In this document: in pieces, positions 1-51,975 of the stretch | Position numbering within the stretch: position 1 is the stretch's first letter | How the letters are laid out: each line of letters opens with the position of its first letter | Assembly (NCBI GenBank): GCA_016930375.1 | Contig: JAFGGU010000096.1 | Location: 3,981 to 67,980, forward strand | Length of the DNA: 64,000 nucleotides | From: Bacteroidales bacterium | GTDB lineage: Bacteria; Bacteroidota; Bacteroidia; Bacteroidales; UBA10428 | Direction: 5' to 3' | Made by a program: the position numbers and the translations under genes | The notes under the pieces: model-generated | Databases searched by the model: none | What the model saw: only the letters and a program-made list of their open reading frames with translations | What the model was told of the DNA's origin: nothing

Positions 1-21
1 GTTCTAAGCATTCAAATATAT

Positions 22-2205
22 ATGATTAAAAACATCGCCATTAAGGACTGTGCAAGTTTTGACAGTGTGAATGGAATTAACTTTGCACCAACTCTCGTTA
101 ATTATATTTACGGGTCAAATGGCAGTGGTAAAACTGCTATCTCAAATGTAATACGTGATTGTACAAGCTACCCCCTTTGCTCACTTGATTGGGGACTCGC
201 AGCACCGCTCCAGACTCTGGTTTACAATCGAACCTTTATCGAAGAGAATTTCGAGCAATCAAAGGAACTCAAAGGAATCTTTACGCTGGGAAAAGGTAGC
301 AAAGAGGAACTTGAAAAAATTAAAGTAAACCAAGCGGAGGTAGAGAAAAGGGAAAAATCCATCATCGACCTTAAGGGGACACTTGAAAACGAAAAACTGA
401 AACTTCTCACCATTGAAGACAACTTTGTTGATAAATGCTGGGGAGTACAAAAGAAATACGAAGGAATATTTATCAAGGCATTCGAAGGAAATAGAAATTC
501 AAAACAAAGGTTTAAAGACAAAGTTGTGTCTGAATATGCTGGTAACAAGCGACCACTTCTGTTGTTTGCTGAGTTGGAAAGCAAAGCCAGTCAAATATTA
601 AATGCTCCAGCCGTTAAGGTTGCACCTGTAATCGATTTTAGTTTGCCAGACTTTAATACTCTCGAAGAAAATCCGATTTTTCAAACAAGAATAATTGGCA
701 AAGATGATGTTGACATTGCAAGGATGATTTTAAAGCTGAACAACAGTGATTGGGTTAGGCAGGGTATAGTATTTTTTAAAGCTAACGATGAGTATTGTCC
801 TTTTTGCCAGCAAACAACGACAGAAAGTTTCAGAAAACAGTTAGACGAATACTTTGACGAGAGTTATAATCAACAGTTACAAGCATTAAAAAATGCATAT
901 GATAAATATAACTTTGAATGTGAAACACTGCTAATAGCAATTGGAAACTATTTGGCTCTGAATAATCAGTTCATTGATTTACCTGCTTTGACAGGACTTA
1001 GGGACATGATAGTTACTAAACAACAAAAGAACCTGTTGACAATTGAGAAGAAGCTAAATGAGCCGACCATTAAAATTACATTAGACAGTATTTCCGAGCA
1101 CATAGTTAAACTCAAAGAAATAATTGACCAAGCTATAACTAAGAGCAAGGAGCATAACAGACTCATCGACAACATCGAATCTGAAAAAAAAGCTTTGATT
1201 TCTAACATATGGTCGTTTATTCTCAACGAATTAAGGTTGGACTTCGGAACTTATACATCTGAAAAAGATTCCAGCGAAAAGGCGATTAAGAGTGTTTCCA
1301 CAAAAATCACTACAATCGAAGGTGAGGTAGGAGCATTGAAAACGGAGATACAGAATTCTGAAAGTAAGATTACAAGTACAAAACCCACCATCGGTACGAT
1401 AAACAAAACCCTAACAGGATTTGGTTTCACTAACTTTTCTTTAGCTGAAACTACAACAGTAGGCGGCTATAAAATTGTTCGTGAAAATGGAGTAGATGCT
1501 AAGAACACATTAAGTGAAGGGGAGAAGACATTTATTACATTCCTGTATTTTTATCATCTGACAAATGGTAGCTTTGAAACTAATCAGATAACCACTAACA
1601 AGATTCTTGTTATTGACGACCCAATATCAAGCTTAGACAGTGCTGTATTATTTATCGTATCAAATCTCGTCAGAAAACTTATCAGTGAATGCAGAGAAGG
1701 TAAAAGCCATGTGAAACAAGTATTTGTTCTGACTCATAATGTGTATTTTCATAAAGAAGTTACTTTTAAGAAGAGAAGCGAATCCAGCAGGGGGGAATCA
1801 TATTGGATAATAAGAAAAATCGGGAAAAATAGTACTATTGAGAAATACAAAGAGAATCCAGTCCAGACCTCTTACGATTTATTATGGCAGGAAATTAGAG
1901 ATAGAGCGAGTATTAATAAACTAACTGTTTTCAACACGTTGCGTAGAATTCTCGAATATTATTTTAAAATATTAGGTAAGATAAAAGATGATGAGTTGCT
2001 CGATAAGTTCGATGGCGAAGACAAAATAATAAGCAATTCACTCCTGTCGTGGATAAATGACGGGTCACATACAATAAATGACGATATATTTATATCAACT
2101 GATGAAGAAACTGTTGAAAAATACCTAAGAGTGTTCAAGAGAATTTTCGAAGTTGAAAGTCAGATTGAGCATTATAACATGATGATGAAAGTGCCTGTTA
2201 TTTAG
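22..2205 (+). CDS. RloC/PrrC-like ABC-type ATPase (AAA_13-like) with C-terminal anticodon-nuclease-like domain
   Basis: 727-aa ORF. ATPase motifs: Walker A GSNGSGKT; ABC signature LSEGEKT; Walker B/D-loop ILVIDDPISSLD; H-loop LTHN. A long Lys/Glu-rich coiled-coil insert carries a CPFC motif that looks like a Rad50 zinc hook. The C-terminal block NTLRRILEYYF...(38 aa)...WINDGSHT resembles the Arg/Glu/His arrangement of PrrC/RloC nuclease domains. Confidence 0.65.
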   Translation: MIKNIAIKDCASFDSVNGINFAPTLVNYIYGSNGSGKTAISNVIRDCTSYPLCSLDWGLAAPLQTLVYNRTFIEENFEQSKELKGIFTLGKGSKEELEKIKVNQAEVEKREKSIIDLKGTLENEKLKLLTIEDNFVDKCWGVQKKYEGIFIKAFEGNRNSKQRFKDKVVSEYAGNKRPLLLFAELESKASQILNAPAVKVAPVIDFSLPDFNTLEENPIFQTRIIGKDDVDIARMILKLNNSDWVRQGIVFFKANDEYCPFCQQTTTESFRKQLDEYFDESYNQQLQALKNAYDKYNFECETLLIAIGNYLALNNQFIDLPALTGLRDMIVTKQQKNLLTIEKKLNEPTIKITLDSISEHIVKLKEIIDQAITKSKEHNRLIDNIESEKKALISNIWSFILNELRLDFGTYTSEKDSSEKAIKSVSTKITTIEGEVGALKTEIQNSESKITSTKPTIGTINKTLTGFGFTNFSLAETTTVGGYKIVRENGVDAKNTLSEGEKTFITFLYFYHLTNGSFETNQITTNKILVIDDPISSLDSAVLFIVSNLVRKLISECREGKSHVKQVFVLTHNVYFHKEVTFKKRSESSRGESYWIIRKIGKNSTIEKYKENPVQTSYDLLWQEIRDRASINKLTVFNTLRRILEYYFKILGKIKDDELLDKFDGEDKIISNSLLSWINDGSHTINDDIFISTDEETVEKYLRVFKRIFEVESQIEHYNMMMKVPVI

Positions 2206-2330
2206 GCAATCACATTTATAAGTACGAGGTAAATAATAAATTACACTATTAATCTAAAGTAAAACATTATATATAATACGTTATTGTTATGTAAATAACC
2301 ATGATATACTTGTACTATAATTGACTTTTA

Positions 2331-2368
2331 CCCCCCCCCCTGCCTCATCACTTGCCCCACCCCCCCCC
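2331..2368 (+). repeat. Two homopolymeric C tracts: C10 (2331-2340) and CCCCAC9 (2355-2368), separated by 14 nt
   Basis: Read directly from the sequence. The tracts stand out inside an AT-rich intergenic region between the ATPase gene and the Rep-like gene. Confidence 0.9.
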
Positions 2369-2563
2369 TGTAAAATACGGTAATCGGAACGTATCCTAAT
2401 TAAACAGATTTTAATTTTGAAGTACTCTCACCACAAATGCACGTCCACCACGCATATCCTCTCTCAAAATATTTCAGTGCTGAAATGGTGGATTATAATT
2501 TTTTATAAAAAAATTTTAGCAAATCAAGGATTTTCGCTGCAATGGCAGTAGGTATGTATATAG

Positions 2564-2700
2564 TCTTCGGCAAGCTATAAGAAGAAGTAGCACTCTGTAG
2601 ACCTTTACTGGGTGCACTTCTTTAAATCAATGCTGAAGATTAAATAACTTAAATGCCGAGAAAGTTAACTTGCTGAAGAACGGCACAACTTGCCGAAGTA
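2564..2700. promoter_or_regulatory. Iteron-like repeats of GCTTGCYGAAGA upstream of the Rep-like gene
   Basis: Direct copies: TGCTGAAGA at 2631-2639; TGCCGAGAA at 2654-2662; ACTTGCTGAAGAA at 2668-2680; ACTTGCCGAAGTA at 2688-2700. The direct copies are spaced roughly 20 nt apart. One inverted copy, TCTTCGGCAAGC, lies at 2564-2575. Confidence 0.5.
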
Positions 2701-2745
2701 TGATTATCCAAAGAATTCTACTACTGGCTTCGTGGGGGTCAGTTT

Positions 2746-4116
2746 ATGAATCACGAAATTGAAGCCAACTTATTACATGCCTCTGATGAGGCAATTAAAA
2801 TCCGTTTAGGAATCTCAGGATTCCATAACTCTGTATTATCGTATGGTAAAATACTATATAACCATAGCATTTTGTCTTACGATAACGAATCCATATACTT
2901 TATAGATAAGCTACATGTAACATATAGCTTTAGTAAGAAGATTGAAAAGAGCATCGCTGAGGCATTCTACAAACGTAAACAGTATGATTGTGATAACCAT
3001 CTGATATTAATACCAAACTATAAACACGGCAATAACTACCATTATTCATTTGCGATTGAGTTTGACGGCAAGCACTTTGGTTATTTGCATCTGTGTAATA
3101 CCAAGAAAACCAATATTTGCAAGATTGAGACCGATAATCGCACTCTTTACGAATCCAGTATCATGTATATTCTTGCCAGACTATATCATATAGCATGGTC
3201 TTTTGACCTACAGTATAACAACATCAATACTTTTGAGATTGCACGTGATACAACAAAACAGTTGTACTCTCAAATGAGTGAAATTTATTACCAATCAACA
3301 ATTCGTAATGAAAATATTCAGATGATTTTTAATAAAGAGCCAAAATACAAGCCAATTACCAGAACTAAAATTCATGACTACCCTGCTGACAATGGAAATG
3401 GTGGAACATTCATTATCGGTGCTAATAGCAGTGAATCACTTATAAGGATTTACAGCAAAACCCCTGAAATAGTTGATAATAGCAACAAGAAAGAATATAT
3501 ACATGAACTTCATGTCAAACAGTTTGGCTTGTTACAAAACATTAACCGTGCTGAGGCGGTAATATTTGGGAATGCTTTTCGTACAGGTGGTATTTTAGGC
3601 TCATATGGCTACAATTTACTTGAAGTACTGATTCCACAGAACCTACCTTCAATTTATTTTAAGGTTTTAGGTGATAAGCTAACATTCAACAACCTCACAA
3701 CAAAAACATGGAATAAAGCTAACAATGAAAAATATGAAAGAGTAAGGTTGATTCCAGAATTAGACTCAAAAAACATTCAGCAGAAGAAACTCATTTTACA
3801 ACCGATAGTAACAAGATTTTCACATTGCAATCACATAAACAAGCACAAATTTAAACTCATCGAGTATCTTGATGGCGATATACCATATTCTGAATTAAAG
3901 CGGTATTTCACAGCAAAAAGGGGTAAGAATGAGATAAATGTTGATGATGTGTCGAAAGCATACCGAATAATTCAAAGGAATTATTGCGGAACGATAGACC
4001 ATGACCAAAATAAACGGATAGGCAGGTTGTTATTATCATTAGAGAGTAGAAGCAGAATTCCACACTGGTGGGCAACTGTGTGCTATGTTTTTTCGAAAAT
4101 AACCATGAAGCAATAA
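2746..4116 (+). CDS. Rep_trans-like rolling-circle replication initiator / relaxase candidate
   Basis: 456-aa ORF. Three blocks occur in the order recalled for the Rep_trans family: NTFEIARDTT (cf. RxDxAxD); GGTFIIGANSSESLIRIYSKTPE (cf. TxYxGSrxSxxxxRiYdK); INRAEAVIFGNAF (cf. wxRvExxxxg). The assignment is from memory of the family profile only. Confidence 0.45.
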   Translation: MNHEIEANLLHASDEAIKIRLGISGFHNSVLSYGKILYNHSILSYDNESIYFIDKLHVTYSFSKKIEKSIAEAFYKRKQYDCDNHLILIPNYKHGNNYHYSFAIEFDGKHFGYLHLCNTKKTNICKIETDNRTLYESSIMYILARLYHIAWSFDLQYNNINTFEIARDTTKQLYSQMSEIYYQSTIRNENIQMIFNKEPKYKPITRTKIHDYPADNGNGGTFIIGANSSESLIRIYSKTPEIVDNSNKKEYIHELHVKQFGLLQNINRAEAVIFGNAFRTGGILGSYGYNLLEVLIPQNLPSIYFKVLGDKLTFNNLTTKTWNKANNEKYERVRLIPELDSKNIQQKKLILQPIVTRFSHCNHINKHKFKLIEYLDGDIPYSELKRYFTAKRGKNEINVDDVSKAYRIIQRNYCGTIDHDQNKRIGRLLLSLESRSRIPHWWATVCYVFSKITMKQ

Positions 4117-4215
4117 CACCGGCAACAATGACATGAAGCAATAACCTTGTGGTGATGACACAGGTCATTGTATCTCTGTAGCTAAACACATGGAATTATG
4201 ACCATGAAGCAGTGA
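4099..4215 (+). repeat. Left three-subsite repeat module (cores ATAACCATGAAGCAATAA 4099-4116, ATGACATGAAGCAATAA 4128-4144, ATGACCATGAAGCAGTGA 4198-4215)
   Basis: Core spacing is 29 and 70 nt. An internal bulged hairpin ACCTTGTG...CACAGGT is present. The module is a direct repeat of 7211-7329. Confidence 0.85.
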
Positions 4216-4375
4216 ATATATAAAATTAGCACTGGTCGCTAAAATTATGGAGTAAAAGCACAGTAAGTAAGAGGAACTTACATATGGTTTCTAATTGTCG
4301 GCAAAAATTGGTATCATTACACATGTGCATAAAGAAAATAGCGGACTGTGTCATATTAAAACGGAATAGGTTCTT

Positions 4376-4383
4376 TACATTTG
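4376..4383 (+). promoter_or_regulatory. Candidate Bacteroidota sigma-A -7 element (TACATTTG = TAnnTTTG) for the endonuclease gene
   Basis: Exact match to the TAnnTTTG consensus, ending 29 nt upstream of the ATG at 4413. I saw no clear -33 TTTG. Confidence 0.3.
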
Positions 4384-4412
4384 TGGGAATAAATAATCAA
4401 TCATTGCGCCAT

Positions 4413-5450
4413 ATGAATTACAAGCGGACTATTGATGAGTTGAAGACCAAGGCAATAAACTTTTGGTCAGAAGAATTGCTCATTGAGGCAAGTAAGAAGA
4501 GTAAAATTCCAATTTTATTACAGACCCAAGACCAATTTTTAAACATCATAAAGGTTGAGGTTGACTCGGTGGATAATTTTTTCAAAATTGTTGAAGCTGC
4601 AAAAATCAGCATAAATTTATTTGTTCAACACCTTATGGTTCTTTCTAATGTTGGTGGAGAGTTCCTTCAAAGAATTAATGGGAATTATGCTACGTTGTTT
4701 CCATCGAAATCAATAACGTTCACATGGCGTGGTGCAAATTATGTTTACAAGTTCTCAGCCTTACCATTGAAACACCTTGGTAATACTACACTTAATATCG
4801 ATGGTGAAAACCTGTTTAAAAAGCAGCCGCTTACACCGCTTTATAAGGATGTTATAATTCTGATGTTATTTGGTAGTTCATGTACGATGGATGAAACGTC
4901 AACCATTCTTGAAGAATGCCAGATTGGTGGATTAATTGGCAATGATGTCGAATTGGAAAAATTTGTTAGGCAAAGATATATTCAAGTAAGTCGTATCACA
5001 GGTGGAGCGAAAGCAAACGACTTGGGTCAAATTGCACAGACAAAGTTGATGGATTACATGACAGCGAAACTGAAAGAACTAAATCTGACATTCAGAACAA
5101 ATGGTCATGTGCCAGAAATTTATAATAAAGAAGAAGATGGTGTTAAGACACTGACTACATTCGACTTGGTTATCAATAATGCTGAAAAAACTAAATATGT
5201 GGTTATTGAACTTACCTTTCAAGTGACAACAAATAGCACGATTGAAAGAAAATCGGGTCAAGCAATGGAAAGGTACAAGCAGGTTGATGCTAAAGGATAC
5301 AAGATTGCCTATGTCATTGATGGTGCTGGTAATTTTCAACGGACAGCAGCGATAAGCAAAATTTGTTCCTATAGTCACTGTAATGTTGCATATACTGAAG
5401 CCGAATTTGATGTTCTCATTGAGTTTATATCAAGCTATATTAAATCATAG
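4413..5450 (+). CDS. Type II restriction endonuclease, DpnII/MboI-like (GATC?)
   Basis: The ORF track starts at 4284, but M44 (ATG 4413) follows the promoter-like motif. The C-terminal block TFDLVINN..YVVIELTFQVTTNSTIERKSGQAMERYK...YKIAYVIDGAGNF parallels the DpnII block RFDFVIKN..YLIEVNFYSGSGSKLNETARSYK...FMWITDGQGW (from memory). The gene lies directly upstream of, and 1 nt from, a DNA methyltransferase gene. Confidence 0.55.
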   Translation: MNYKRTIDELKTKAINFWSEELLIEASKKSKIPILLQTQDQFLNIIKVEVDSVDNFFKIVEAAKISINLFVQHLMVLSNVGGEFLQRINGNYATLFPSKSITFTWRGANYVYKFSALPLKHLGNTTLNIDGENLFKKQPLTPLYKDVIILMLFGSSCTMDETSTILEECQIGGLIGNDVELEKFVRQRYIQVSRITGGAKANDLGQIAQTKLMDYMTAKLKELNLTFRTNGHVPEIYNKEEDGVKTLTTFDLVINNAEKTKYVVIELTFQVTTNSTIERKSGQAMERYKQVDAKGYKIAYVIDGAGNFQRTAAISKICSYSHCNVAYTEAEFDVLIEFISSYIKS

Positions 5451-5451
5451 T

Positions 5452-7203
5452 ATGGAATTCTTTTCTGAAAATAGCATACCACTCCAAATAAAAAAAATTC
5501 AGCTTCATGATATTGGTGCTGTTACAGGTAATAATGCATTTGTCATTTTGCTACCAAAGGAAAAGGGCATCGATTTAGCTCCCATTTATCAGACCATTTT
5601 AAATAGCATGTTGGATGAAAGTGCACTGATTACCGTTGGTCATCCTGAGATATTGGTTGAGGCACAAATCTTATTAAAAGCATCACTTAGGTATCAGTCA
5701 TGGATAGCAATTCGAGAACGGAATGCCTCAACAGACATCGATTCTCACCGATTGGAAAATTCTCATTTCGGTGCTCTCATTCATTCAAAGTATAAGAATT
5801 CTCTTAAACACTGCGAAACAAGGTTAAAGTACACCATTTGTCCATTTTGTGGTAAGACCACGAAGGATTATGGGGGGAAGAAACACACCTTTCATGAGTT
5901 CGGCACATTAATATCTGATGTGTGGAAGGAGATTTCACTTGACTATTCTAATGAGGATGATATTAATAAACTCCTTAGCTACTTTGCATTGATTTTTGGG
6001 TTGCAGGAGTATAGTGATTTGATTGTTCTCGATTACCGTCAGACAGGTACACAGGTAAGCATACAGCCAAATTTAACCCGAATCTGGTCTGATGTAACAA
6101 ACGCATATGGAAATAATTCTTTGCTAATCAAAGGCGATTGTATTGAGGAACTGAAGAAAATACCAGACAACTCTATTGATTTTATATTTGCCGACCCCCC
6201 ATATAATGTTAATAAAAAATATGTTGGTTATAATGATGGGAAAGCAATTGAGGATTACTTTAACTGGTGTGATGAATGGTTATTACAATTAGCACGGGTA
6301 TTAAAGCCACACAGAACCCTCGCAGTATTAAACATACCATTATGGTCGATAAGGCATTTTGAGTACCTTAAAACCATATTAAACTACCAGAATTGGATAG
6401 TCTGGGATGGATTATCATTCCCTGTAAGACAAATAATGCCTGCACATTACTCGATATTATGTTTTACTAAAGGAGAGAGCAGAGTATTACCCAAATTTGC
6501 CGCTGCAGGTGGCGTGAACGAGATAGTGAATGCGTCAAAGTCCTTTAAGTCTCTAAAACCGCTAAAGGCTGGGTATTGTCTGAGAGAGTCTTGTATAAAC
6601 AAAAGGAGCAAGGTTGATTCAAGTACTCGTGAAATTGATGTTTCTGACATATGGTGGGATATCCATAGATTAAAGCACAATAGTAGACGTGTTGACCATC
6701 CATGTCAATTACCACCAGCTTTAATGTATCGATTGATTTCGATATTCTCTGATGAGGGTGAGATAGTTCTTGATTGTTTTAATGGTGCAGGAACAACAAC
6801 ACTATGTGCACAACAGCTAAACAGGATGTATATCGGCATCGAAGCATCAGATGATTATCACGCAATTGCTCAGAAACGACATGATGAGATTTTGAATGGA
6901 CTTGACCCATTCCGTAAAGAGCCACGCAAAGTTGGTGCGAAGAATAGTAGAGTTCCAAGGATGGAAAAAAACACAACTGGTTTTACTAAGAAAGAGATTC
7001 AGTTAGATGTTAGAAATGTTGCGTTAGTATTAGGACATATCCCCACAAAAGAAGAATACAAGACTGCTGGTAAATATCCCATTGATATCGTTGATAGACT
7101 ATTTCAATCATGGAGTGATGCATGTGTAGCAACAAAGACTAATGGCGTTACAGAGTACCCTAAAGAAGCGACTGAACAGCAGAGAACACTTGAATTTACA
7201 TGA
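5452..7203 (+). CDS. Beta-class N6-adenine/N4-cytosine DNA methyltransferase with N- and C-terminal extensions
   Basis: ATG 5452 lies 1 nt after the endonuclease stop (5448-5450). Motif IV DFIFADPPYN precedes motif I VLDCFNGAGTT, which is the beta-class order, and HPCQLPPAL lies between them. The ~240-aa N-terminal extension contains CPFCGK..GGKKH (zinc-ribbon-like). The ~100-aa C-terminal tail contains HIPTKEEYKTAGKYPIDIVDRLFQSWSDA. Confidence 0.85.
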   Translation: MEFFSENSIPLQIKKIQLHDIGAVTGNNAFVILLPKEKGIDLAPIYQTILNSMLDESALITVGHPEILVEAQILLKASLRYQSWIAIRERNASTDIDSHRLENSHFGALIHSKYKNSLKHCETRLKYTICPFCGKTTKDYGGKKHTFHEFGTLISDVWKEISLDYSNEDDINKLLSYFALIFGLQEYSDLIVLDYRQTGTQVSIQPNLTRIWSDVTNAYGNNSLLIKGDCIEELKKIPDNSIDFIFADPPYNVNKKYVGYNDGKAIEDYFNWCDEWLLQLARVLKPHRTLAVLNIPLWSIRHFEYLKTILNYQNWIVWDGLSFPVRQIMPAHYSILCFTKGESRVLPKFAAAGGVNEIVNASKSFKSLKPLKAGYCLRESCINKRSKVDSSTREIDVSDIWWDIHRLKHNSRRVDHPCQLPPALMYRLISIFSDEGEIVLDCFNGAGTTTLCAQQLNRMYIGIEASDDYHAIAQKRHDEILNGLDPFRKEPRKVGAKNSRVPRMEKNTTGFTKKEIQLDVRNVALVLGHIPTKEEYKTAGKYPIDIVDRLFQSWSDACVATKTNGVTEYPKEATEQQRTLEFT

Positions 7204-7210
7204 TACAGTG

Positions 7211-7329
7211 ATGACCATGAATCTATAGCACCCGGACTAATGACCATGAAGGAATGACCTTGTAACAATTGCACAAGTCATAACAACCCAGGAGTCGTAA
7301 CACCGAGATTTATGACCATGAAGCAATGT
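7211..7329 (+). repeat. Right three-subsite repeat module (cores ATGACCATGAATCTATAG 7211-7228, ATGACCATGAAGGAATGA 7240-7257, ATGACCATGAAGCAATGT 7312-7329)
   Basis: Core spacing is 29 and 72 nt, mirroring the left module. An internal bulged hairpin ATGACCTTGT...ACAAGTCAT is present. The module lies between the methyltransferase stop and the recombinase stop. Confidence 0.85.
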
Positions 7330-7341
7330 CACTTATGCGTA

Positions 7342-8988
7342 TTACTGGTTTATTTCTTGCACAAGAGTCATTTTGTGTAGTTTATTATTAAGCAGTTGGT
7401 AGCTGTGACCATTGAATCCTGTTACGGTATAAAAATCATACTTGTTAAATAATGTGGTTATCACTATTCGGGTGATTCTCTCATGATGTATTTTCGGGAT
7501 AAGTTTTTCCAAGTTTGCATGGTCAGATATACTGCTTTTTTTTATCTCCACTGATAATATGAAAGTCTTAATGAGCCTTTTATATAATTCTATACCCATG
7601 TCATACCTTTCAGTAAGGGACTTTACACCATAAGTGTTTATCTGGTCTACAAATTGTTCAACATTTAACATTGCATCAGATGTGCTCGACTGGTTTAATG
7701 TAGATTCATTTATTAGTAGCTGATTCAATCTGTTGCTATTAATTATTATACCGTCTTCGATTTTATTTTTCTGGGACAGATATTCTGCCTCATCGATAAC
7801 ATTGCTTACCACAAGCTCAGTAAGTCTCTTAGTTTTGTTGCTGCTCTTTTCGATTTCAGCTTTTAATATGTCTATTTCCCGTCTGATGTTGCTCAATTCA
7901 TGATTCCTGCTTTTATTGAATTTACTTATATGTTTTTCTTTGTGAATACGCTTGGAGAATTCAACCAGCAAAGCAAATAACGCATAGTAGACCATTGAGT
8001 TTAACAGATTAATGCCAATGCTATTATTTCCGCAGCTTTCTGTAAGCTGTCCTAATGTTGCTTTGCGATTGCTCATGCATTTATATGCAAAATCCTTTCT
8101 GGATTTTCTTGCATGTATAAAATATCCTGAACCACATTCACCACATACAACCAAACCACTGAGATAATTCTGAAATATTGCCTTGTCTTTGTTCAAGTTG
8201 CTGTTCTTCTTAAATATTTGCTGCGCTGTCAAATAGTCGCTTTTACTTACTATAGCAGGGACTTCAACGAAACCAAAATTATACTTTCGTTGTCCGAAAT
8301 ACATAGTATTGTGTAAAATATCACGAACCTGTACATCATTCCACTTAACATCCTTTTTAGTAGGAATATTGGTTAGATTTAAGTGCTTTGAAATTGACGG
8401 AGAAGCCATACCACCAATAAATAACTTATATATTTCTTTTACTATTTCGGCTTCGTTGGCATCAACTACTATTTTACCGTTGAGGTTAGTATATCCATAT
8501 GGGGACAAGCTAAAAGCACCGCCACTTTTCAGATGATGGTGCAAACCTCTTTTGCTTCGGTCAATTATAGTCGTTCTCTCATACTGTGCCACACTTCCCA
8601 TAATACCTAAAATCATATTTGCAGTATTATTTATGGTCTTGTCATCATTCAATGTACTTATGTTTTCTTTCTTGGCATATACATTTATACGTTTTTCAGT
8701 CAGTAATTCGATGGTGGTAAGTACGTCTTTCAGATTTCTGCCCAAACGACTTAATTCCCAGACGATTAAATTGTCAACAGGATGTGTTTCAATAAAGTTT
8801 AATAGCTCCTTAAAGGCTAATCTGTCACTGGCTTTGGTTTTTCCACTGATTATTTCGTCAAATACTCCTAATACACTATATTTCATGTATTTAGCATAGT
8901 TCTTTAGGTCATCAATCTGAGATTTATTGCTCTGGTGTTCTGTGGAGACACGAGAGTAAATGACACAAGTACCAGAAGCAGTCTTCAT
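7342..8988 (-). CDS. Large serine recombinase (integrase)
   Basis: 548 aa. The N-terminal resolvase catalytic motif is VIYSRVSTEHQ. Downstream lie a recombinase domain, a zinc-ribbon-like CGECGSGY...C...C segment and a coiled-coil-like region. The gene sits at the extreme edge of the island. Confidence 0.9.
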   Translation of the reverse strand: MKTASGTCVIYSRVSTEHQSNKSQIDDLKNYAKYMKYSVLGVFDEIISGKTKASDRLAFKELLNFIETHPVDNLIVWELSRLGRNLKDVLTTIELLTEKRINVYAKKENISTLNDDKTINNTANMILGIMGSVAQYERTTIIDRSKRGLHHHLKSGGAFSLSPYGYTNLNGKIVVDANEAEIVKEIYKLFIGGMASPSISKHLNLTNIPTKKDVKWNDVQVRDILHNTMYFGQRKYNFGFVEVPAIVSKSDYLTAQQIFKKNSNLNKDKAIFQNYLSGLVVCGECGSGYFIHARKSRKDFAYKCMSNRKATLGQLTESCGNNSIGINLLNSMVYYALFALLVEFSKRIHKEKHISKFNKSRNHELSNIRREIDILKAEIEKSSNKTKRLTELVVSNVIDEAEYLSQKNKIEDGIIINSNRLNQLLINESTLNQSSTSDAMLNVEQFVDQINTYGVKSLTERYDMGIELYKRLIKTFILSVEIKKSSISDHANLEKLIPKIHHERITRIVITTLFNKYDFYTVTGFNGHSYQLLNNKLHKMTLVQEINQ

Positions 8989-9011
8989 ATTGTAAATGGT
9001 TTATTCATATG

Positions 9012-9019
9012 CAAATGTA
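9012..9019 (-). promoter_or_regulatory. Candidate -7 element (TACATTTG on the minus strand) for the recombinase gene
   Basis: The reverse complement of 9012-9019 is TACATTTG (TAnnTTTG), 23 nt upstream of the recombinase ATG and within the last ~40 nt of the island. Confidence 0.3.
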
Positions 9020-9053
9020 ATAAAACACCACACATAAAAAAAATAATACAGAT

Positions 9054-9752
9054 GTGGCCCTGGTAGGAGGGGGATCCTACCCTCAACCCGGGGAAATTTC
9101 CCTGGCCCATAACGGTGTGCTTTTTCTCGACGAATTGCCGGAATTCAAGCGGTCGGTGCTCGAAGTTATGCGTCAGCCGCTGGAGGACCGGAACATCACC
9201 ATCTCCCGGTCGAAATTCAGTATTGAATACCCTGCCTCATTTATGTTGATCGCGAGCATGAATCCTTGTCCCTGCGGCTTTTACAACCATCCGGAAAAGG
9301 ACTGCGTATGTTCATCCGGCGTGGTGCAGAAATACCTGAACCGCATTTCGGGACCGCTGCTCGACCGCATCGACATTCATATTGAGGTAGTGCCGGTACC
9401 TTTTGACAAGCTTTCGGAGCTGAAACCTTCGGAATCCAGCGAAGATGTTCGTTACCGGGTGATAAAGGCCCGGAAGATCCAGCACGAACGCTATAAGAGC
9501 AATGACGGGATACATTGCAATGCCCAACTCACGCCGGCCCTGATGCGGGAGCATTGCCAGATCAGTCAGGAAGGCAGCCTGCTTCTCAAAAATGCCATGG
9601 AAAAGCTGGGCCTTTCAGCCCGCGCCTATGACCGGATCATTAAAGTTTCCCGCACCGTAGCAGACCTGGAAGAGAGCACGAATATCGAACCGCATCACCT
9701 GGCAGAGGCGATCAATTACAGGAGCCTGGACAGGGAGAGCTGGGCGGGGTAA
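9054..9752 (+). pseudogene. comM: 3' fragment of comM/yifB (Mg-chelatase-like AAA+ competence protein) truncated by the island insertion
   Basis: Translation begins mid-protein at (D)[31 protein letters not shown]... and continues through the conserved C-terminal half to a normal stop. The N-terminal ~280 aa (Lon-like and Walker A parts) are absent. The GTG at 9054 is an ORF-caller artefact rather than a real start. Confidence 0.85.
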
Positions 9753-9785
9753 CAACCCTTCAAGCGGTCCTTAGACCCTTGAAGG

Positions 9786-9926
9786 GTGAGATGGGGAGAT
9801 GGGGAGAGTGGGAGATAGGGTGAAAAGGTGACAAGGAGAAAAGGTGAAGAGGTGATTAGGTGATTAGGTGATTAGGTGATTAGGTGATTAGGTGATTAGG
9901 TGATTAGGTGATTAGGTGATTAGGTG
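9786..9926 (+). repeat. Purine-rich 8-nt-period tandem array ending in 9.5 perfect copies of GGTGATTA (9851-9926)
   Basis: Read directly. Degenerate units (aaaaggtg, acaaggag, aagaggtg) resolve into perfect GGTGATTA units. The array begins ~35 nt after the comM stop. Confidence 0.9.
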
Positions 9927-9989
9927 GGGAGGCAGTTCTTTGTCTTGTCAGAAAATAGTACTATCTTGGAACAAAAACAGGGCAGGCGT

Positions 9990-10424
9990 ATGAATACTAA
10001 ACCGGAACTCATTGAGGCCATTTTGTTGGTATATATCAAATCGGAAATAAAAAATGTAATCATACATCATGAGGAGTATGTAAAAACGGATTTTGAGAAC
10101 TGCAAAGAATACCAGGTATTCAATAAAACGCTCAAGGAAAAGGATATTCTTGCCTATCATTCCACATCCAATGTATATGAAGCATTTTCTCAGAGTATGC
10201 ATGAATTCGGCTGGCCTGAAATCAGGTTCATATTTCTGCAATATAAACTTGATAACAACTCATACCTTAAATTGAAGCTTCGTCCGATCGCAGTTGATGA
10301 ATCATTATCACCACAATGGCAGGTGTATGGCAGGAGTATTCCCTTCTTTACATTTACGGCAAGTACGAATAAAGATGATTTTATGGATACTTTCGAGAAA
10401 CAACTCATCGAGTTTCTAAAGTGA
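9990..10424 (+). CDS. Hypothetical protein (AT-rich orphan ORF)
   Basis: The ORF track starts at 9924 inside the repeat array. The ATG at 9990 (MNTKPELIE...) is the more plausible start. I recognised no motif. Confidence 0.4.
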   Translation: MNTKPELIEAILLVYIKSEIKNVIIHHEEYVKTDFENCKEYQVFNKTLKEKDILAYHSTSNVYEAFSQSMHEFGWPEIRFIFLQYKLDNNSYLKLKLRPIAVDESLSPQWQVYGRSIPFFTFTASTNKDDFMDTFEKQLIEFLK

Positions 10425-10451
10425 TATTTGCGGATATTTCATGACCAGGTT

Positions 10452-11324
10452 TTAAAGAAAAGCATTCAGGATAAACAACGCCATCACCAGCAAACCAAAT
10501 GCATTTACCATGATATAAGCCGTTCTCAGGGCGTTTGAGCTGTATTGCCTGAAGAGCAGCCGGTAGAACAAGAGGATAAAAGCCGCATTGACCGGTATCA
10601 GGACAGCATTCAGATATGCGTTAAAAACAAGTCCTCTTACACTGAAAACAACCAATAAGGATGTTGTACATACGATCCAGCCGAAAACAAGATATTTGAT
10701 CTGTGCATCCGATACCTTGCTGGAAAATGTTTTAAATCCCGCTTTTTGATAGTCATCGCGGTACTTAACCAGGATCAGCCAGAAGTGAGGAAGTTGCCAT
10801 AAAAACAGGAAGGTGGCAAATAAAACAATTTCAGCTTTCGGCGTAATTCCACCTGCAGCCGTGAAACCGATTAAAGGCGGAATGGCTCCCACAGCAGATC
10901 CGGGAATTACGGCCAGGGATGTGATTCTTTTCAGGCGGGTGTAAATAAGGTTATACAGGAGTATATTTAAAAGTCCCAACATTGCAGGTATAATTCCGAT
11001 GAACAGTAGCAACCCGATCCCGGTTGTTATGAGTGCGATGGAAATAGCCAGGGCGGTCGGCGGTTTTATTTTACCCAGCGGAAGAGGTCTTTTCCCGGTA
11101 CGTCCCATGAGGATGTCCAGATCTTTCTCATCATACTGGTTTAATGCAGAGGCTCCTGCTGCCAGTAGGAAAACACCGGTGATGAGCAGAACCAGGGATG
11201 CTTCCACCCTGGCAGTAAATATAAAATACCCGGTAACCGCAGACAGTGTCACTGCCGCTGAAAGCCTGAACCTGACCAGTTCAGTCACGGTCAACAATTT
11301 AGCGCCTGTTTTCAGGCTATTCAT
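10452..11324 (-). CDS. ctaB: Protohaem IX farnesyltransferase (haem O synthase), UbiA family
   Basis: 290-aa polytopic protein with the NQYDEKDLDILMGRT (NxxxDxxxD) prenyltransferase motif. It is the last gene of the oxidase operon and overlaps coxII by 8 nt. Confidence 0.85.
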   Translation of the reverse strand: MNSLKTGAKLLTVTELVRFRLSAAVTLSAVTGYFIFTARVEASLVLLITGVFLLAAGASALNQYDEKDLDILMGRTGKRPLPLGKIKPPTALAISIALITTGIGLLLFIGIIPAMLGLLNILLYNLIYTRLKRITSLAVIPGSAVGAIPPLIGFTAAGGITPKAEIVLFATFLFLWQLPHFWLILVKYRDDYQKAGFKTFSSKVSDAQIKYLVFGWIVCTTSLLVVFSVRGLVFNAYLNAVLIPVNAAFILLFYRLLFRQYSSNALRTAYIMVNAFGLLVMALFILNAFL

Positions 11325-12237
11325 GCAAGGTTTTTAAATAATCGTTTATTTTTTTCAGGTCTTCTTCTTTCAGCACATCCGTATATGACTTCATGAGGCC
11401 CTTATTATATCCTGCTGCTATTTCAGCATCGGGAGAATAAACTGACCTGGAGATGAAAGCATCATCAGCAATTACTTTCGTTTCCGTATTATTGGCGATC
11501 ACGGTTCTTTCACTTCCGTAAAAATCTTTAAAGGTGGGTCCCACGAGTTTGGATCCGTCGATCGAGTGACAGGCCAGGCAACCGGTATTCCGCAACACGA
11601 TGAGGCCTTCAGCCTCCGGTATTTTACTTGCCTTTTCAAGATCGGCATACCATTTTTCATATTCTTCCTGGTCCACCACCCTTACTTTTGACATCATATT
11701 GGAATGCAGTAATCCGCAGTATTGTGTGCACAGGATCTCATAATTGCCGATATACTGGGGAATAAACCACATGTAATTATTGTAGCCCGGCACAACGTCT
11801 TCCTTGACACGAAAGGCAGGGATGAAGAAACCGTGGTTGACATCCTCTGAGACCAGATCGAGTCGCACAGCTTTGTTAAGGGGGATTACAAGTTCTTTGG
11901 ATGTCATGCCGTTGCCGTAATCAAAGATCCATTCCCACATTTTGCCGATGACCTTCACCTGCATGGCGTCCGGCGGTGCTTTTCGCATGGGGGCAAAAGC
12001 AATCCAGCCGTAATAAAACATAAGCAGGACCAGGATAATGGGAATCACGGTCCATATTATCTCAAGTTTAATATTGTCAGTGAATTGCATGGCTTTCAGT
12101 CCTTTCTTTCTCCTGAAGCGGACGAGGGTATACACGATAAACACGGAGATGCCGATAAGAAAGATCAGGGATATAATGATGATAAACGCAAATACTTTGT
12201 CTACCCCGGCTGATACATTTGATGCTTCTGAAAACAT
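11317..12237 (-). CDS. ctaC: Cytochrome c oxidase subunit II fused to a cytochrome c domain (caa3-type)
   Basis: Two N-terminal TM segments. CuA ligands are H...CTQYCGLLHSNM. A C-terminal CLACH haem-binding motif is present. Confidence 0.9.
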   Translation of the reverse strand: MFSEASNVSAGVDKVFAFIIIISLIFLIGISVFIVYTLVRFRRKKGLKAMQFTDNIKLEIIWTVIPIILVLLMFYYGWIAFAPMRKAPPDAMQVKVIGKMWEWIFDYGNGMTSKELVIPLNKAVRLDLVSEDVNHGFFIPAFRVKEDVVPGYNNYMWFIPQYIGNYEILCTQYCGLLHSNMMSKVRVVDQEEYEKWYADLEKASKIPEAEGLIVLRNTGCLACHSIDGSKLVGPTFKDFYGSERTVIANNTETKVIADDAFISRSVYSPDAEIAAGYNKGLMKSYTDVLKEEDLKKINDYLKTLHE

Positions 12238-49968: not shown

Positions 49969-51975
49969 ATGGCCCTGGATGTACTGAAAAATATTGTAAT
50001 CATTCTTGCCCTTTCCACCTTCGTAAACTATGTGTTTACCAGGATAAAGGTTCCGACCATTCTGGGTTATTTAATCACGGGAATTATAGTTGGTCCTTCG
50101 TTGCTGGGCATAATCCACTCTCCTGAAGAAATTGAACTGATGGCGGAGATCGGGGTAGTCATGCTGTTATTTACCATTGGCATTGAATTCTCCCTGAATC
50201 ATTTGCTGAAGATCAGAAAAATTGTATTCCTGGGAGGGTTCATGCAATTGCTGTTTACGGTGTTGGTAATCATGCTCATCTCCCGCGGGTATGATATCGA
50301 CTGGAAGGGCGCCCTGTTCATTGGTTTCCTTTCTGCACTGAGCAGTACAGCTGTAGTTTTAAAGATTCTGCAGGAACGCTCGGAGCTCACCTCCAATTAT
50401 GGTCGTACCGTGCTCGGGATCCTCATTTTTCAGGATCTATTGCTGGTTCCTCTTTTGTTGTTTACGCCTATCCTGGGCGGACAAACAACATTTGGCTGGG
50501 ACCAGTTAATATTACTCCTTTTAAAAGCCGGTTTTATCATCGGGTTGATATTTGTGGGAAACAAGTGGCTGATGCCCAGATTTCTAAGAGCTGTAGCCAT
50601 GACCAAGAATCAGGAATTGTTTCTAATGAGTACCTTTCTGATTTGTCTTTCCGTGGCACTTCTGACTTCGGCTCTTGGCATGTCACTGGCTGTTGGCGCA
50701 TTCCTGGCAGGATTGATGATTTCGGAATCGGGATACAGCCACAATGCATTTGGTAATATAGTACCGTTTAAAGATACCTTCACCAGTTTCTTTTTTGTTT
50801 CGATCGGGATTTTGCTTGACCTGAATTTTGTTGTTGATCACCTCTGGCTGGTTCTTTTGTCCGCCCTCATACTTATTTTTTTCAAGGCCATACTGGCAGG
50901 GATTACTGCTTTTTTTCTGGGACATACGTTCAGGGGAGTGGTTATGGTAGGGATCGCCCTGAGCCAGGTCGGGGAATTCTCATTTATTCTGTCAAAACTA
51001 GGACTTGAATACAAAATCATCACCAACTTCTACTACCAGTTATTTATCGCTGTAGCAGTGATCTCCATGTCACTTACACCCCTGTTGATGCAGATATCGC
51101 GTCCGATTGCCAACCTGTTGTTAAAACTTCCCCTGCCTGGAAAGCTGGTTGATGGGATATTTCCACTTCCGCAGATTGATATACCTGAGTTGAGAGACCA
51201 CCTGGTTTTCATAGGCAAGGATTCCAGGGCGCTTAATTTATCTGTAATGGCCAAAAATATGGACCTTCCCTATGTGTCTATTGCTTTCGATCCTGATTCT
51301 GTAAGAAAGCGCCAGTTGAAGGGGGAAATGGTCATTTACGGGGATGCTTTCAATGAGCCAATTCTTCGGAAAGCACATACAGATAAGGCAGATATCGTGG
51401 TAATTTCGATAGGCAACGTCATTACTACCATGGCCATTATTGAAAAGATTAGAAACATGAATCCGCATGCCTATATCATCGCCAGGGCGAAAAGGGTTGA
51501 GGACCTGATTGAATTGCACAATATCGGTGCTAACCAGGTGATTCCGGAAGAGTTTGAAACATCCATCGAAATGTTTGACCGGGTTTTATCGAAGATGCTG
51601 ATACCCCGCAAAGAAATCAATGCCGTGATCGCCAGGATCAGGGATGATAATTATGGGATCTTCATGGAAAAGGAAACCAAGACAGATCTTTCGGTATTAA
51701 AAAACCATGCCAATTTTGAGATCACTGCCGTGAAGGTGGATGATCATTCCCCTGTGATCGGTAAAAGCCTTGTGGAAATGCAGTTTCGGAAGACATATGG
51801 AGTCACGCTGGTGGCTCTTTTCCGGAAAAAAGTACTGTATGATAATCCTGACCCGGAAACCCTTTTCGAAAAAGGGGACATGGTTTACATCATGGGCCGT
51901 TCCGAGCAGATTGCAAACACCACGGAACTGTTCTCCAAAAGTGAAGCGCCCAGAGATACATTTGTTGATAATTAA
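49969..51975 (+). CDS. CPA2-family cation:proton antiporter with C-terminal RCK (TrkA-N/TrkA-C) domains (Kef-type)
   Basis: It has a ~400-aa polytopic Na/H-exchanger-like region followed by soluble RCK-like domains (HLVFIGKDSRA..., ...TAVKVDDHSPVIGKSL). The start is taken at ATG 49969. Confidence 0.85.
   Translation: MALDVLKNIVIILALSTFVNYVFTRIKVPTILGYLITGIIVGPSLLGIIHSPEEIELMAEIGVVMLLFTIGIEFSLNHLLKIRKIVFLGGFMQLLFTVLVIMLISRGYDIDWKGALFIGFLSALSSTAVVLKILQERSELTSNYGRTVLGILIFQDLLLVPLLLFTPILGGQTTFGWDQLILLLLKAGFIIGLIFVGNKWLMPRFLRAVAMTKNQELFLMSTFLICLSVALLTSALGMSLAVGAFLAGLMISESGYSHNAFGNIVPFKDTFTSFFFVSIGILLDLNFVVDHLWLVLLSALILIFFKAILAGITAFFLGHTFRGVVMVGIALSQVGEFSFILSKLGLEYKIITNFYYQLFIAVAVISMSLTPLLMQISRPIANLLLKLPLPGKLVDGIFPLPQIDIPELRDHLVFIGKDSRALNLSVMAKNMDLPYVSIAFDPDSVRKRQLKGEMVIYGDAFNEPILRKAHTDKADIVVISIGNVITTMAIIEKIRNMNPHAYIIARAKRVEDLIELHNIGANQVIPEEFETSIEMFDRVLSKMLIPRKEINAVIARIRDDNYGIFMEKETKTDLSVLKNHANFEITAVKVDDHSPVIGKSLVEMQFRKTYGVTLVALFRKKVLYDNPDPETLFEKGDMVYIMGRSEQIANTTELFSKSEAPRDTFVDN

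Follow-up and report, generated by a model that had tools for sequence, protein, structure and literature searches.

A restriction–modification operon between two direct-repeat modules in a small comM island of Bacteroidales: probably a duplicated spacer beside a Rep-like gene

A restriction–modification (R-M) gene pair that lies between two direct-repeat modules, each with three conserved cores and one of them next to the gene of a large serine recombinase (LSR), raises the question of whether such modules are recombination sites that move the pair or have a different origin. The pair is found in a low-GC island of around 9.2 kb in a Bacteroidales bacterium (assembly GCA_016930375.1, contig JAFGGU010000096.1), and the window referred to throughout is the whole 64,000-nucleotide stretch of that contig that was analysed, which begins inside the island. 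The modules are very likely two copies of the spacer that separates a Rep-like gene from the LSR gene, and it is judged likely that they are neither res sites of a resolvase nor sites of the LSR. The full explanation, in which an old duplication of this spacer surrounds an inserted R-M operon and the cores are probably functional, has about an even chance of being right. As it stands, the feature is well explained structurally and no new recombination system is indicated.

The six cores of the original prediction, all in one orientation, were borne out by a motif scan, together with their spacings of 29 and 70 nt in the left module and 29 and 72 nt in the right one (Table 1). The 14-nt core ATGACCATGAAGCA is present on the + strand only, at 4099 (one mismatch), 4198 (none), 7211 (two), 7240 (one) and 7312 (none), and the copy at 4128, which reads ATGAC-ATGAAGCA, has a 1-nt deletion; one further match with two mismatches, at 50599, is unrelated to the modules. 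By chance, 0.91 matches are expected per shuffle, and six or more were found in 0 of 100 shuffles. The three-core pattern at the observed spacings is seen at only these two places in the window and likewise in 0 of 100 shuffles. Each module has in addition a fourth, degenerate core 14 nt past core 2, and the repeat unit can be described as around 29–31 nt that consist of the core and a TAACACCGG-like tail. As had been noted, the left module overlaps the last codons of the Rep-like gene, and the right one lies between the stop codon of the methyltransferase (MTase) gene, past which it begins by 8 nt, and that of the recombinase gene (7342–7344), of which it falls short by 13 nt. The modules are of around 120–140 bp, and the homology of the left one to the right one possibly extends to around 4238. 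No further module copies were found within the 64 kb, and a genome-wide repeat of the repetitive extragenic palindromic (REP) or miniature inverted-repeat (MITE) type was rejected on that basis. An extra degenerate copy that had been proposed at 2293–2304, as a hint that the whole island is organised in cassettes, did not hold up, as its 12-nt identity was equalled in 27 of 500 shuffles and it lies outside any module.

Local alignment of the left with the right module gives a score of 67, against 16.0 +/- 2.4 for shuffles, and an identity of 71% over 119 columns. This identity is unevenly distributed, with 37 of 42 core positions (88%) but 48 of 77 spacer positions (62%) being the same (Fisher p = 0.003), which agrees with the first impression by eye of spacers that are around two-thirds identical and cores that are kept. 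At the spacer rate, around 16 core mismatches would be expected where 5 are seen, according to the authors' own binomial estimate, and the five non-coding cores retain 12–14 of their 14 positions as well as their register. Because spacer identity has fallen to 62% and every core is still in its register, a function of the cores as protein-binding sites is probable, and the balance tips slightly towards selection having kept them as such; the difference between 88% and 62% also fits binding sites better than a recent duplication, as had been proposed.

The source of the sequence is a metagenome-assembled genome (MAG), in which repeats might be mis-joined, so an artefact of assembly has to be weighed at this point. 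A second, independent assembly, Logan contig L016 of SRR13394437, agrees with the NCBI MAG and has six cores in the same layout. The longest exact identity between the two module copies is 16 nt, and copies that are only 71% identical overall are not confusable by an assembler. The same structure in two assemblies and the low identity of the copies therefore make mis-assembly very unlikely, to the point of being barely conceivable.

The origin of the module is indicated by the first core on the left, which encodes the C-terminus of the Rep-like protein, ..FSKITMKQ*. The closest Rep among the related islands, that of L014 (63% identical), ends in ..FAKMTMKQ*, encoded by ATGACCATGAAGCAATGA, the same 18 nt; a degenerate second core, GTGACCCTGAAGCATAG, is located 30 nt past this Rep end and is followed by a perfect 14-bp hairpin. 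The Rep gene of L032 (50% identical) ends in AAAATGACCATGAGCTGA, after which come a GC hairpin and then AATGGTCAT in inverted and AAATAACCATCAAG in direct orientation. In L013, AAAATGACC spans the stop codon in a different reading frame, and a second copy of this island's own Rep end is found 58 nt downstream. The repetition of the Rep end downstream of the gene is above chance in the window (p < 0.0005), in L014 (p = 0.0035) and in L013 (p = 0.03), and not above chance in L032, L015, L008 and L011. The repeats in the first three thus indicate that the module belongs to the tail of Rep, and not to the R-M pair or the recombinase. Judged from its sequence, it is a lineage-specific elaboration of this tail, in which the last Rep codons are repeated one to three times around a hairpin.

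Among the relatives, the core is common only to the window and L014. A hand comparison of the spacers between cores 1 and 2, which was not scored, puts the two window modules closer to each other than either is to the L014 module, so that the duplication would fall within this lineage. A scan of IMG/VR with the three-core DNA pattern gave 7 loci, and the three inspected (L001, L003 and L006) are chance matches in tandem-repeat coding sequence; a scan with a two-core degenerate pattern gave 0 matches, and the module DNA has no match in plasmids and phages. A side observation on the cores is that five of the six are followed by an in-frame stop (4114–4116 TAA, 4142–4144 TAA, 4213–4215 TGA, 7226–7228 TAG and 7255–7257 TGA), so that they can be read as mini-open reading frames, MKQ*, MTMKQ*, MTMNL* and MTMKE*. 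The idea that these are translated was set aside, as a rough estimate was not statistically compelling and stops are expected in copies of the 3' end of a gene; their presence fits an origin of the cores as copies of the Rep end.

The R-M pair between the modules is a BanI-family type II operon with an upstream region of its own, in which a TAcaTTTG motif is located at 4376–4383. The gene calls were trimmed, with the restriction endonuclease (REase) probably starting from 4413 (345 aa) and the MTase from 5452 (583 aa); the longest reading frame of the latter (5383–7203, 606 aa) has a 68-nt overlap with the REase gene, and database entries begin one base past the REase stop. The HNH_repeat of the MTase is a homing-endonuclease-associated domain, and around 1550 homologues of the MTase are found at E <= 1e-60. 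By blastn, the closest R-M unit, L034, has 71% DNA identity over 2768 nt in a match that begins with the REase start codon and ends around 7155, and a more sensitive local alignment extends the homology of the unit from around 4358 to near the MTase stop (around 7200). The closest R-M units (MTase 71% identical) lie in an unrelated context and are without modules, and on this ground the idea of a module carried along by the R-M unit was rejected.

What lies between Rep and the integrase gene differs across the related islands. The window has the BanI-family R-M operon there, L013, L014 and L032 have a GDSL lipase, L015 has a BsuBI/PstI REase and L008 has nothing, and the interval stands as an exchangeable cargo slot. 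The earlier view of the R-M pair as an exchangeable cassette survives in this form, with its slot and differing cargo, but without the resolvase-type mechanism. The empty gap in L008 is 106 nt long and has a hairpin, and in the window a similar distance, 113 nt, separates the right-module equivalent of the Rep stop (TAG at 7226) from the LSR stop; L008 is too diverged to align. L014, with its lipase cargo, carries just one module, which is partly homologous and lies at the Rep end. L014 and L013 are the islands in which both cargo ends can be seen, and in these the flanks do not repeat each other and module sequence is present at the Rep end only.

These features can be brought together in one history. 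The ancestral island would have had Rep and the LSR gene in convergent orientation, with a single spacer of around 120–140 bp between them, which would have started inside the last five Rep codons and been built of iteron-like units of around 29 nt, with a small insert breaking up the second unit. The R-M operon, which has a promoter region to itself, would then have entered this slot, and the whole spacer of around 120–140 bp would have been duplicated, with the left copy still ending Rep and the right copy still adjoining the LSR stop. The LSR and resolvase-type chemistry would have had no part in the insertion.

Arrangements of this kind have been documented by Nobusato, Furuta and Kobayashi, who found R-M pairs flanked by direct repeats of 46–420 bp that are 93–100% identical, including one case in H. 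influenzae in which the repeat overlaps 15 bp of the 3' end of a gene (PMC2853133). The criteria of that work for a long target duplication (R and M inside, an insert of <20 kb, no mobility gene and direct repeats of >30 bp) find their counterpart here in an insert of around 3.0 kb (4239–7208), which holds the REase and MTase genes only, and in repeats of around 120–140 bp. The likeness thus lies in a local target repeat that overlaps the 3' end of the neighbouring gene and in R and M genes without a mobility gene. In contrast to the documented cases, the copies here are 71% identical with the cores selectively kept, the target is a slot in a mobile island and not the chromosome, and a true empty-site sibling was not found among the relatives. 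The known pattern of R-M pairs flanked by long direct repeats is hereby extended to Bacteroidota and to old repeats in which short cores are still kept.

The layout had originally been likened to the res sites of Tn3 and gamma-delta, and in outline the likeness is clear, with around 120 bp, three conserved subsites and two direct-repeat copies on one molecule beside a serine recombinase gene. If the adjacent LSR, or a recombinase acting in trans, used the modules as res-like or attC-like sites, the R-M pair would be excised or exchanged as a cassette, an idea that draws some support from the differing slot cargo of the relatives and from a 241-aa small serine recombinase encoded in the related island L008. 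The subsites of res are imperfect inverted repeats that each bind a resolvase dimer, and the cognate resolvase of around 180–210 aa is encoded beside the site. Here, the cores form direct repeats that lack dyad symmetry, all in one orientation and with no dyad partner for cores 1 and 3. No small resolvase is present in the delimited island, where the only recombinase is the 548-aa LSR in place of a resolvase of around 185 aa, and L008, despite its small serine recombinase, has no cores. An integron attC site was also considered and rejected, since the module does not form an imperfect palindrome and an integron integrase is lacking.

The LSR itself has attachment (att) sites of its own in comM, and these are unlike the modules, with no match between attR and the modules by blastn-short and a similarity of attL to the modules that is not above shuffles. 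LSRs use simple sites of around 40–50 bp without accessory subsites. Relatives of the LSR at 50–67% identity adjoin a split comM in other Bacteroidota, including Carboxylicivirga and Maribellus, and a genome scan found no modules in these comM islands. A search of metagenome contigs with the single LSR query found nothing, and the query with an LSR alignment gave a single relative (50%) that lies in comM and has neither Rep nor module; the LSR relatives P0013 and P0017 belong to other islands. DNA near the LSR gene of L027 resembles the right module by eye, a resemblance that was dropped as not above shuffles. Logan contig L016 passes through both modules unbroken, which is weak evidence against abundant alternative junctions. 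The original prediction had named modules on one side only in homologous islands as the finding that would speak against recombination sites, and this is what L014 and L013 have, in addition to the R-M relatives without any module. The comparison with res was abandoned on these grounds, and res-like or attC-like sites are considered very improbable.

The Rep-like gene directly upstream of the left module invites another view of the direct repeats. Its product belongs, very distantly, to the Rep_trans superfamily. The match to Pfam Rep_trans (E 3.6e-4) is below the cutoff, PF02486 is matched by 16 of 50 distant members of the family (best E 5e-9), and the best and sole strong Foldseek match of the predicted structure (predicted local distance difference test, pLDDT, 61.5) is 4CIJ, a Geobacillus rolling-circle initiator (E 7.8e-7). 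A sequence-profile search of the PDB with the Rep alignment gave nothing, and only the fold search gave a match. The family is tiny, with 9 proteins in a set of 5.8 billion and 110 representatives among 1.84 billion, and has no members in plasmids, phages or IMG/VR. In plasmids with rolling-circle replication (RCR), two direct-repeat origins cause the loss of the intervening DNA. By analogy, the modules could be an origin/terminus pair at which the Rep_trans-like protein nicks DNA within the cores or next to them, and the R-M pair would be a Rep-dependent cassette; this predicts that the island, once excised, gives rise to a circle without the R-M pair and a 3.1-kb single-stranded circle with the R-M pair and a module.

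The direct orientation of the modules and the cores kept in both speak for such a pair, as does the resemblance of direct repeats with a small hairpin to RCR double-strand origins (PMC1851628). Repeats close to their own gene are recognised by the initiators of rolling-circle replicons. The RepB protein of pMV158 binds three 11-bp direct repeats at 84 bp from the nick hairpin (PMC1851628), and the MOBT relaxase RelSt3 of ICESt3 has its bind site 68 bp from nic (PMC9371924). As in the double-strand origins or origins of transfer (oriT) of pMV158, pT181 (IR-II/IR-III) and ICESt3, the module is located beside a Rep_trans-superfamily gene and has two to four direct repeats and a small inverted repeat within around 120 bp. 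Unlike those, it lies downstream of rep, overlaps its stop codon, is present twice and has no recognisable nick-site hairpin, and a search for such a hairpin (the MOBT GC-rich inverted repeat with CT'AA, or pT181 IR-II) found no GC-rich inverted repeat in the modules or elsewhere in the island. The relatives need one module only, the unbroken L016 contig again provides weak evidence to the contrary, and a better-conserved candidate origin is present upstream of Rep. An origin/terminus pair is therefore regarded as quite improbable. The same low standing is given to the related idea that the modules are cis-sites for the Rep_trans-like protein acting as a recombinase-like strand-transferase, with initiation and termination spinning out, or taking in, the DNA between them. 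If that were true, the gap between Rep and the integrase gene would be a rolling-circle cassette slot for the exchange of defence genes between small islands, and a copy of the Rep 3' end would remain as the footprint of each exchange.

In MOBT elements, oriT lies upstream of the relaxase gene, and it is upstream of Rep that the related islands have their best-conserved non-coding DNA. A C-rich block with C10 and C9 tracts, around 400 nt upstream of Rep, is kept across the island family, and two Logan contigs, L041 and L016, each break at the C tracts; the block is a possible origin or oriT region, or else a slippage-prone site. A structured element of around 200 nt on the + strand adjoins the Rep start codon on its upstream side, and its DNA is far better kept than Rep, even in a relative with 34% identity from the cultured Carboxylicivirga sp. 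RSCT41. In its consensus structure of nested helices, 90% of cells are paired against 35–42% in slid controls, with 9 compensatory pairs against 1–4 when slid, and the invariant G-U pairs make the element specific to the + strand. Rfam gave no match at E <= 1 over window positions 1–12000. Its role could be that of a rep leader RNA or of a single-strand origin. This upstream region is a better candidate for an origin or oriT, which weakens the case for the module as an origin, and the structured element may be a more original lead than the modules themselves.

What binds the cores, if they are bound, may be approached by the same analogy. Rep is tentatively suggested as the likeliest binder, with the module forming part of a replication or transfer cis-region, an idea that is more doubtful than not and is held weakly because there is no nick hairpin, the GC hairpin that follows Rep elsewhere is missing and the best conservation is found upstream of Rep. 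If the cores were Rep-binding or nicking sites, they would provide a handle on cargo exchange and a sequence tag for finding such islands.

The hairpins bear on a simpler alternative, namely that modules and cores are a relic without present function beyond the ending of transcription units, the cores being kept by coding constraint on the first core of the left module and by gene conversion. Each module does end a transcription unit, that of Rep on the left and those of the R-M pair and the LSR on the right, and a strong terminator-like hairpin is found at the same place in the relatives: a GC-rich hairpin directly follows the Rep stop in every one of them, with a folding free energy (dG) of -15.7 to -28 kcal/mol in the five that were folded (-17.6 to -28 in four strong relatives, and a weaker -15.7 in L015). 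Three of these hairpins have a TTTA loop, and the arms are swapped between L015 (GCTGCG/CGCAGC) and L032 and L013 (GCAGCG/CGCTGC). That the module is lineage-specific, with the core in the window and L014 only, and that the family-wide conservation sits upstream of Rep would also be expected of a relic. In the window, however, the hairpins are weak. The one that both modules were thought to share has an RNA dG of -14.4 kcal/mol (z -2.2) on the left and of -6.6 kcal/mol (z -0.7) on the right. A gap-free search for inverted repeats gave a single weak one in the left module (4125–4135/4161–4171) and none at all in the right module. Neither module folds better than shuffles as whole DNA, and a search for intrinsic terminators (GC-rich stem-loop and T tract) called no terminator-like site in 4000–7400. 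The five non-coding cores, with their kept positions and register beside spacers at 62%, and the deficit of core mismatches estimated above also argue against a mere relic, which is considered unlikely.

Several observations nevertheless weigh against the preferred account, in which an old spacer duplication surrounds the R-M operon and the cores are functional. With copies that are 71% identical, against the 93–100% reported for long target duplications, the event must either date far back or differ in kind. Among the related islands, none was found in which a lone three-core module occurs without cargo, so the empty site is a reconstruction. The GC hairpin that the family has after Rep is absent from the window modules and, upon searching, from the whole island. 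The best-conserved non-coding DNA of the family is upstream of Rep and not in the module, and the conservation of the cores could be due to gene conversion among the copies instead of selection.

The setting of the locus is best explained as a small defence island that targets comM and belongs to a new, very small family related to Rep_trans. GC content is around 35% over positions 1 to around 9000 and 44–50% in the DNA to the right, with the step at attR. The 3' part of comM on the right, the 5' part on the left in Logan contig L041 and the GC step together indicate that the island splits comM. In L041, the 5' part of comM comes first, around 145 nt to the left of the first gene of the window, and is followed by the gene of the PDC-S06 ATPase. 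Delimited in this way from attL (in L041) to attR, the island has five genes, encoding the AAA_13 ATPase, the Rep-like protein, the BanI-family REase, the N4/N6 MTase and the LSR. It provides a concrete picture of a defence operon housed in a minimal integrative island, with an integrase, a Rep_trans-like gene and two cargo slots. The coordinates of all features are collected in Table 1.

Table 1. Features of the island in the window, and counterparts of some of them in related islands.
Feature	Position	Strand	Evidence or remark
AAA_13 ATPase gene, PADLOC PDC-S06 candidate defence gene, first cargo	22..2205	+	Pfam AAA_13 E 8.6e-175; PADLOC PDC-S06 E 1.9e-261; L041
Conserved non-coding region upstream of Rep: C10 2331-2340, C9 2360-2368, block CTGTAAAAnACG..GTATCC, structured element 2547-2745	2254..2745	+	Aligned with L032, L013, L008, L011, L015
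Rep_trans-superfamily initiator/relaxase-like gene; core 1 of the left module formed by its last five codons (..ITMKQ*)	2746..4116	+	Pfam, Foldseek
Left module; cores 4099-4112, 4128-4140, 4198-4211; degenerate core 4140-4153; weak inverted repeat 4125-4135/4161-4171	4099..4215	+	Motif scan, alignment
BanI-family type II R-M operon; REase 4413-5450; N4/N6 MTase with C-terminal HNH_repeat 5452-7203	4358..7203	+	RE_BanI E 3.4e-127; N6_N4_Mtase E 3.3e-42
Right module; cores 7211-7224, 7240-7253, 7312-7325; degenerate core 7254-7267	7211..7329	+	Motif scan, alignment
Large serine recombinase gene, 548 aa, island integrase	7342..8988	-	Pfam Resolvase, Recombinase and Zn_ribbon_recom; PHROG integrase E 5.5e-87
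attR region; conserved block ACACCACAYATAAAAAAA; CCACAcAT..ATGTGG dyad	8989..9053	.	Alignment with L027, L017, L028
comM 3' part (Mg-chelatase-like), split target gene	9054..9752	+	Pfam Mg_chelatase match from profile position 89; 5' part on L041
Counterparts of the C-rich block	L032 1-50; L013 5850-5925; L008 9535-9560; L028 11635-11655		
Counterparts of the structured element	L032 204-406; L013 6072-6273; L008 9812-10003; L011 1445-1648; L015 1-142; L028 ~11830-12015		
GC hairpins after Rep in relatives	L014 1481-1513; L032 1773-1796; L013 7642-7675; L008 11375-11402; L015 1535-1555; L028 13382-13420		L028 by eye, unfolded

Guedon, Payot and co-workers have described integrative mobilizable elements that combine a serine integrase with a Rep_trans-type relaxase (PMC5704250, PMC7563843). 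The present island is like these in being of around 9 kb, in having an integrase, a Rep_trans-related protein and variable cargo, and in its site-specific location in a conserved gene. It differs in being from Bacteroidota and not Firmicutes, in its tiny and very distant Rep family and in its cargo of defence genes.

The second cargo slot is the one between attL and the conserved region upstream of Rep, which is occupied by the PDC-S06 (AAA_13) ATPase gene here and is empty in L013; on this side (22–2205, and 1089–1233 in L041) there is no flanking module. In L008 (6552–13428), a related island of around 6.4 kb splits yjbQ and has an unrelated LSR (23% identity), with an Xre-type helix-turn-helix gene accompanying the small serine recombinase, and in L011 a tyrosine integrase is found nearby. 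The Rep unit and its upstream element thus combine with different integrases. In Carboxylicivirga sp. RSCT41 (L028, 13440–14703), the Rep relative lies downstream of the LSR gene in the same orientation and is followed by the hairpin and two further genes, the first of which was guessed, by eye only, to be Vsr-like; these two genes may be another defence or repair cargo in an equivalent slot.

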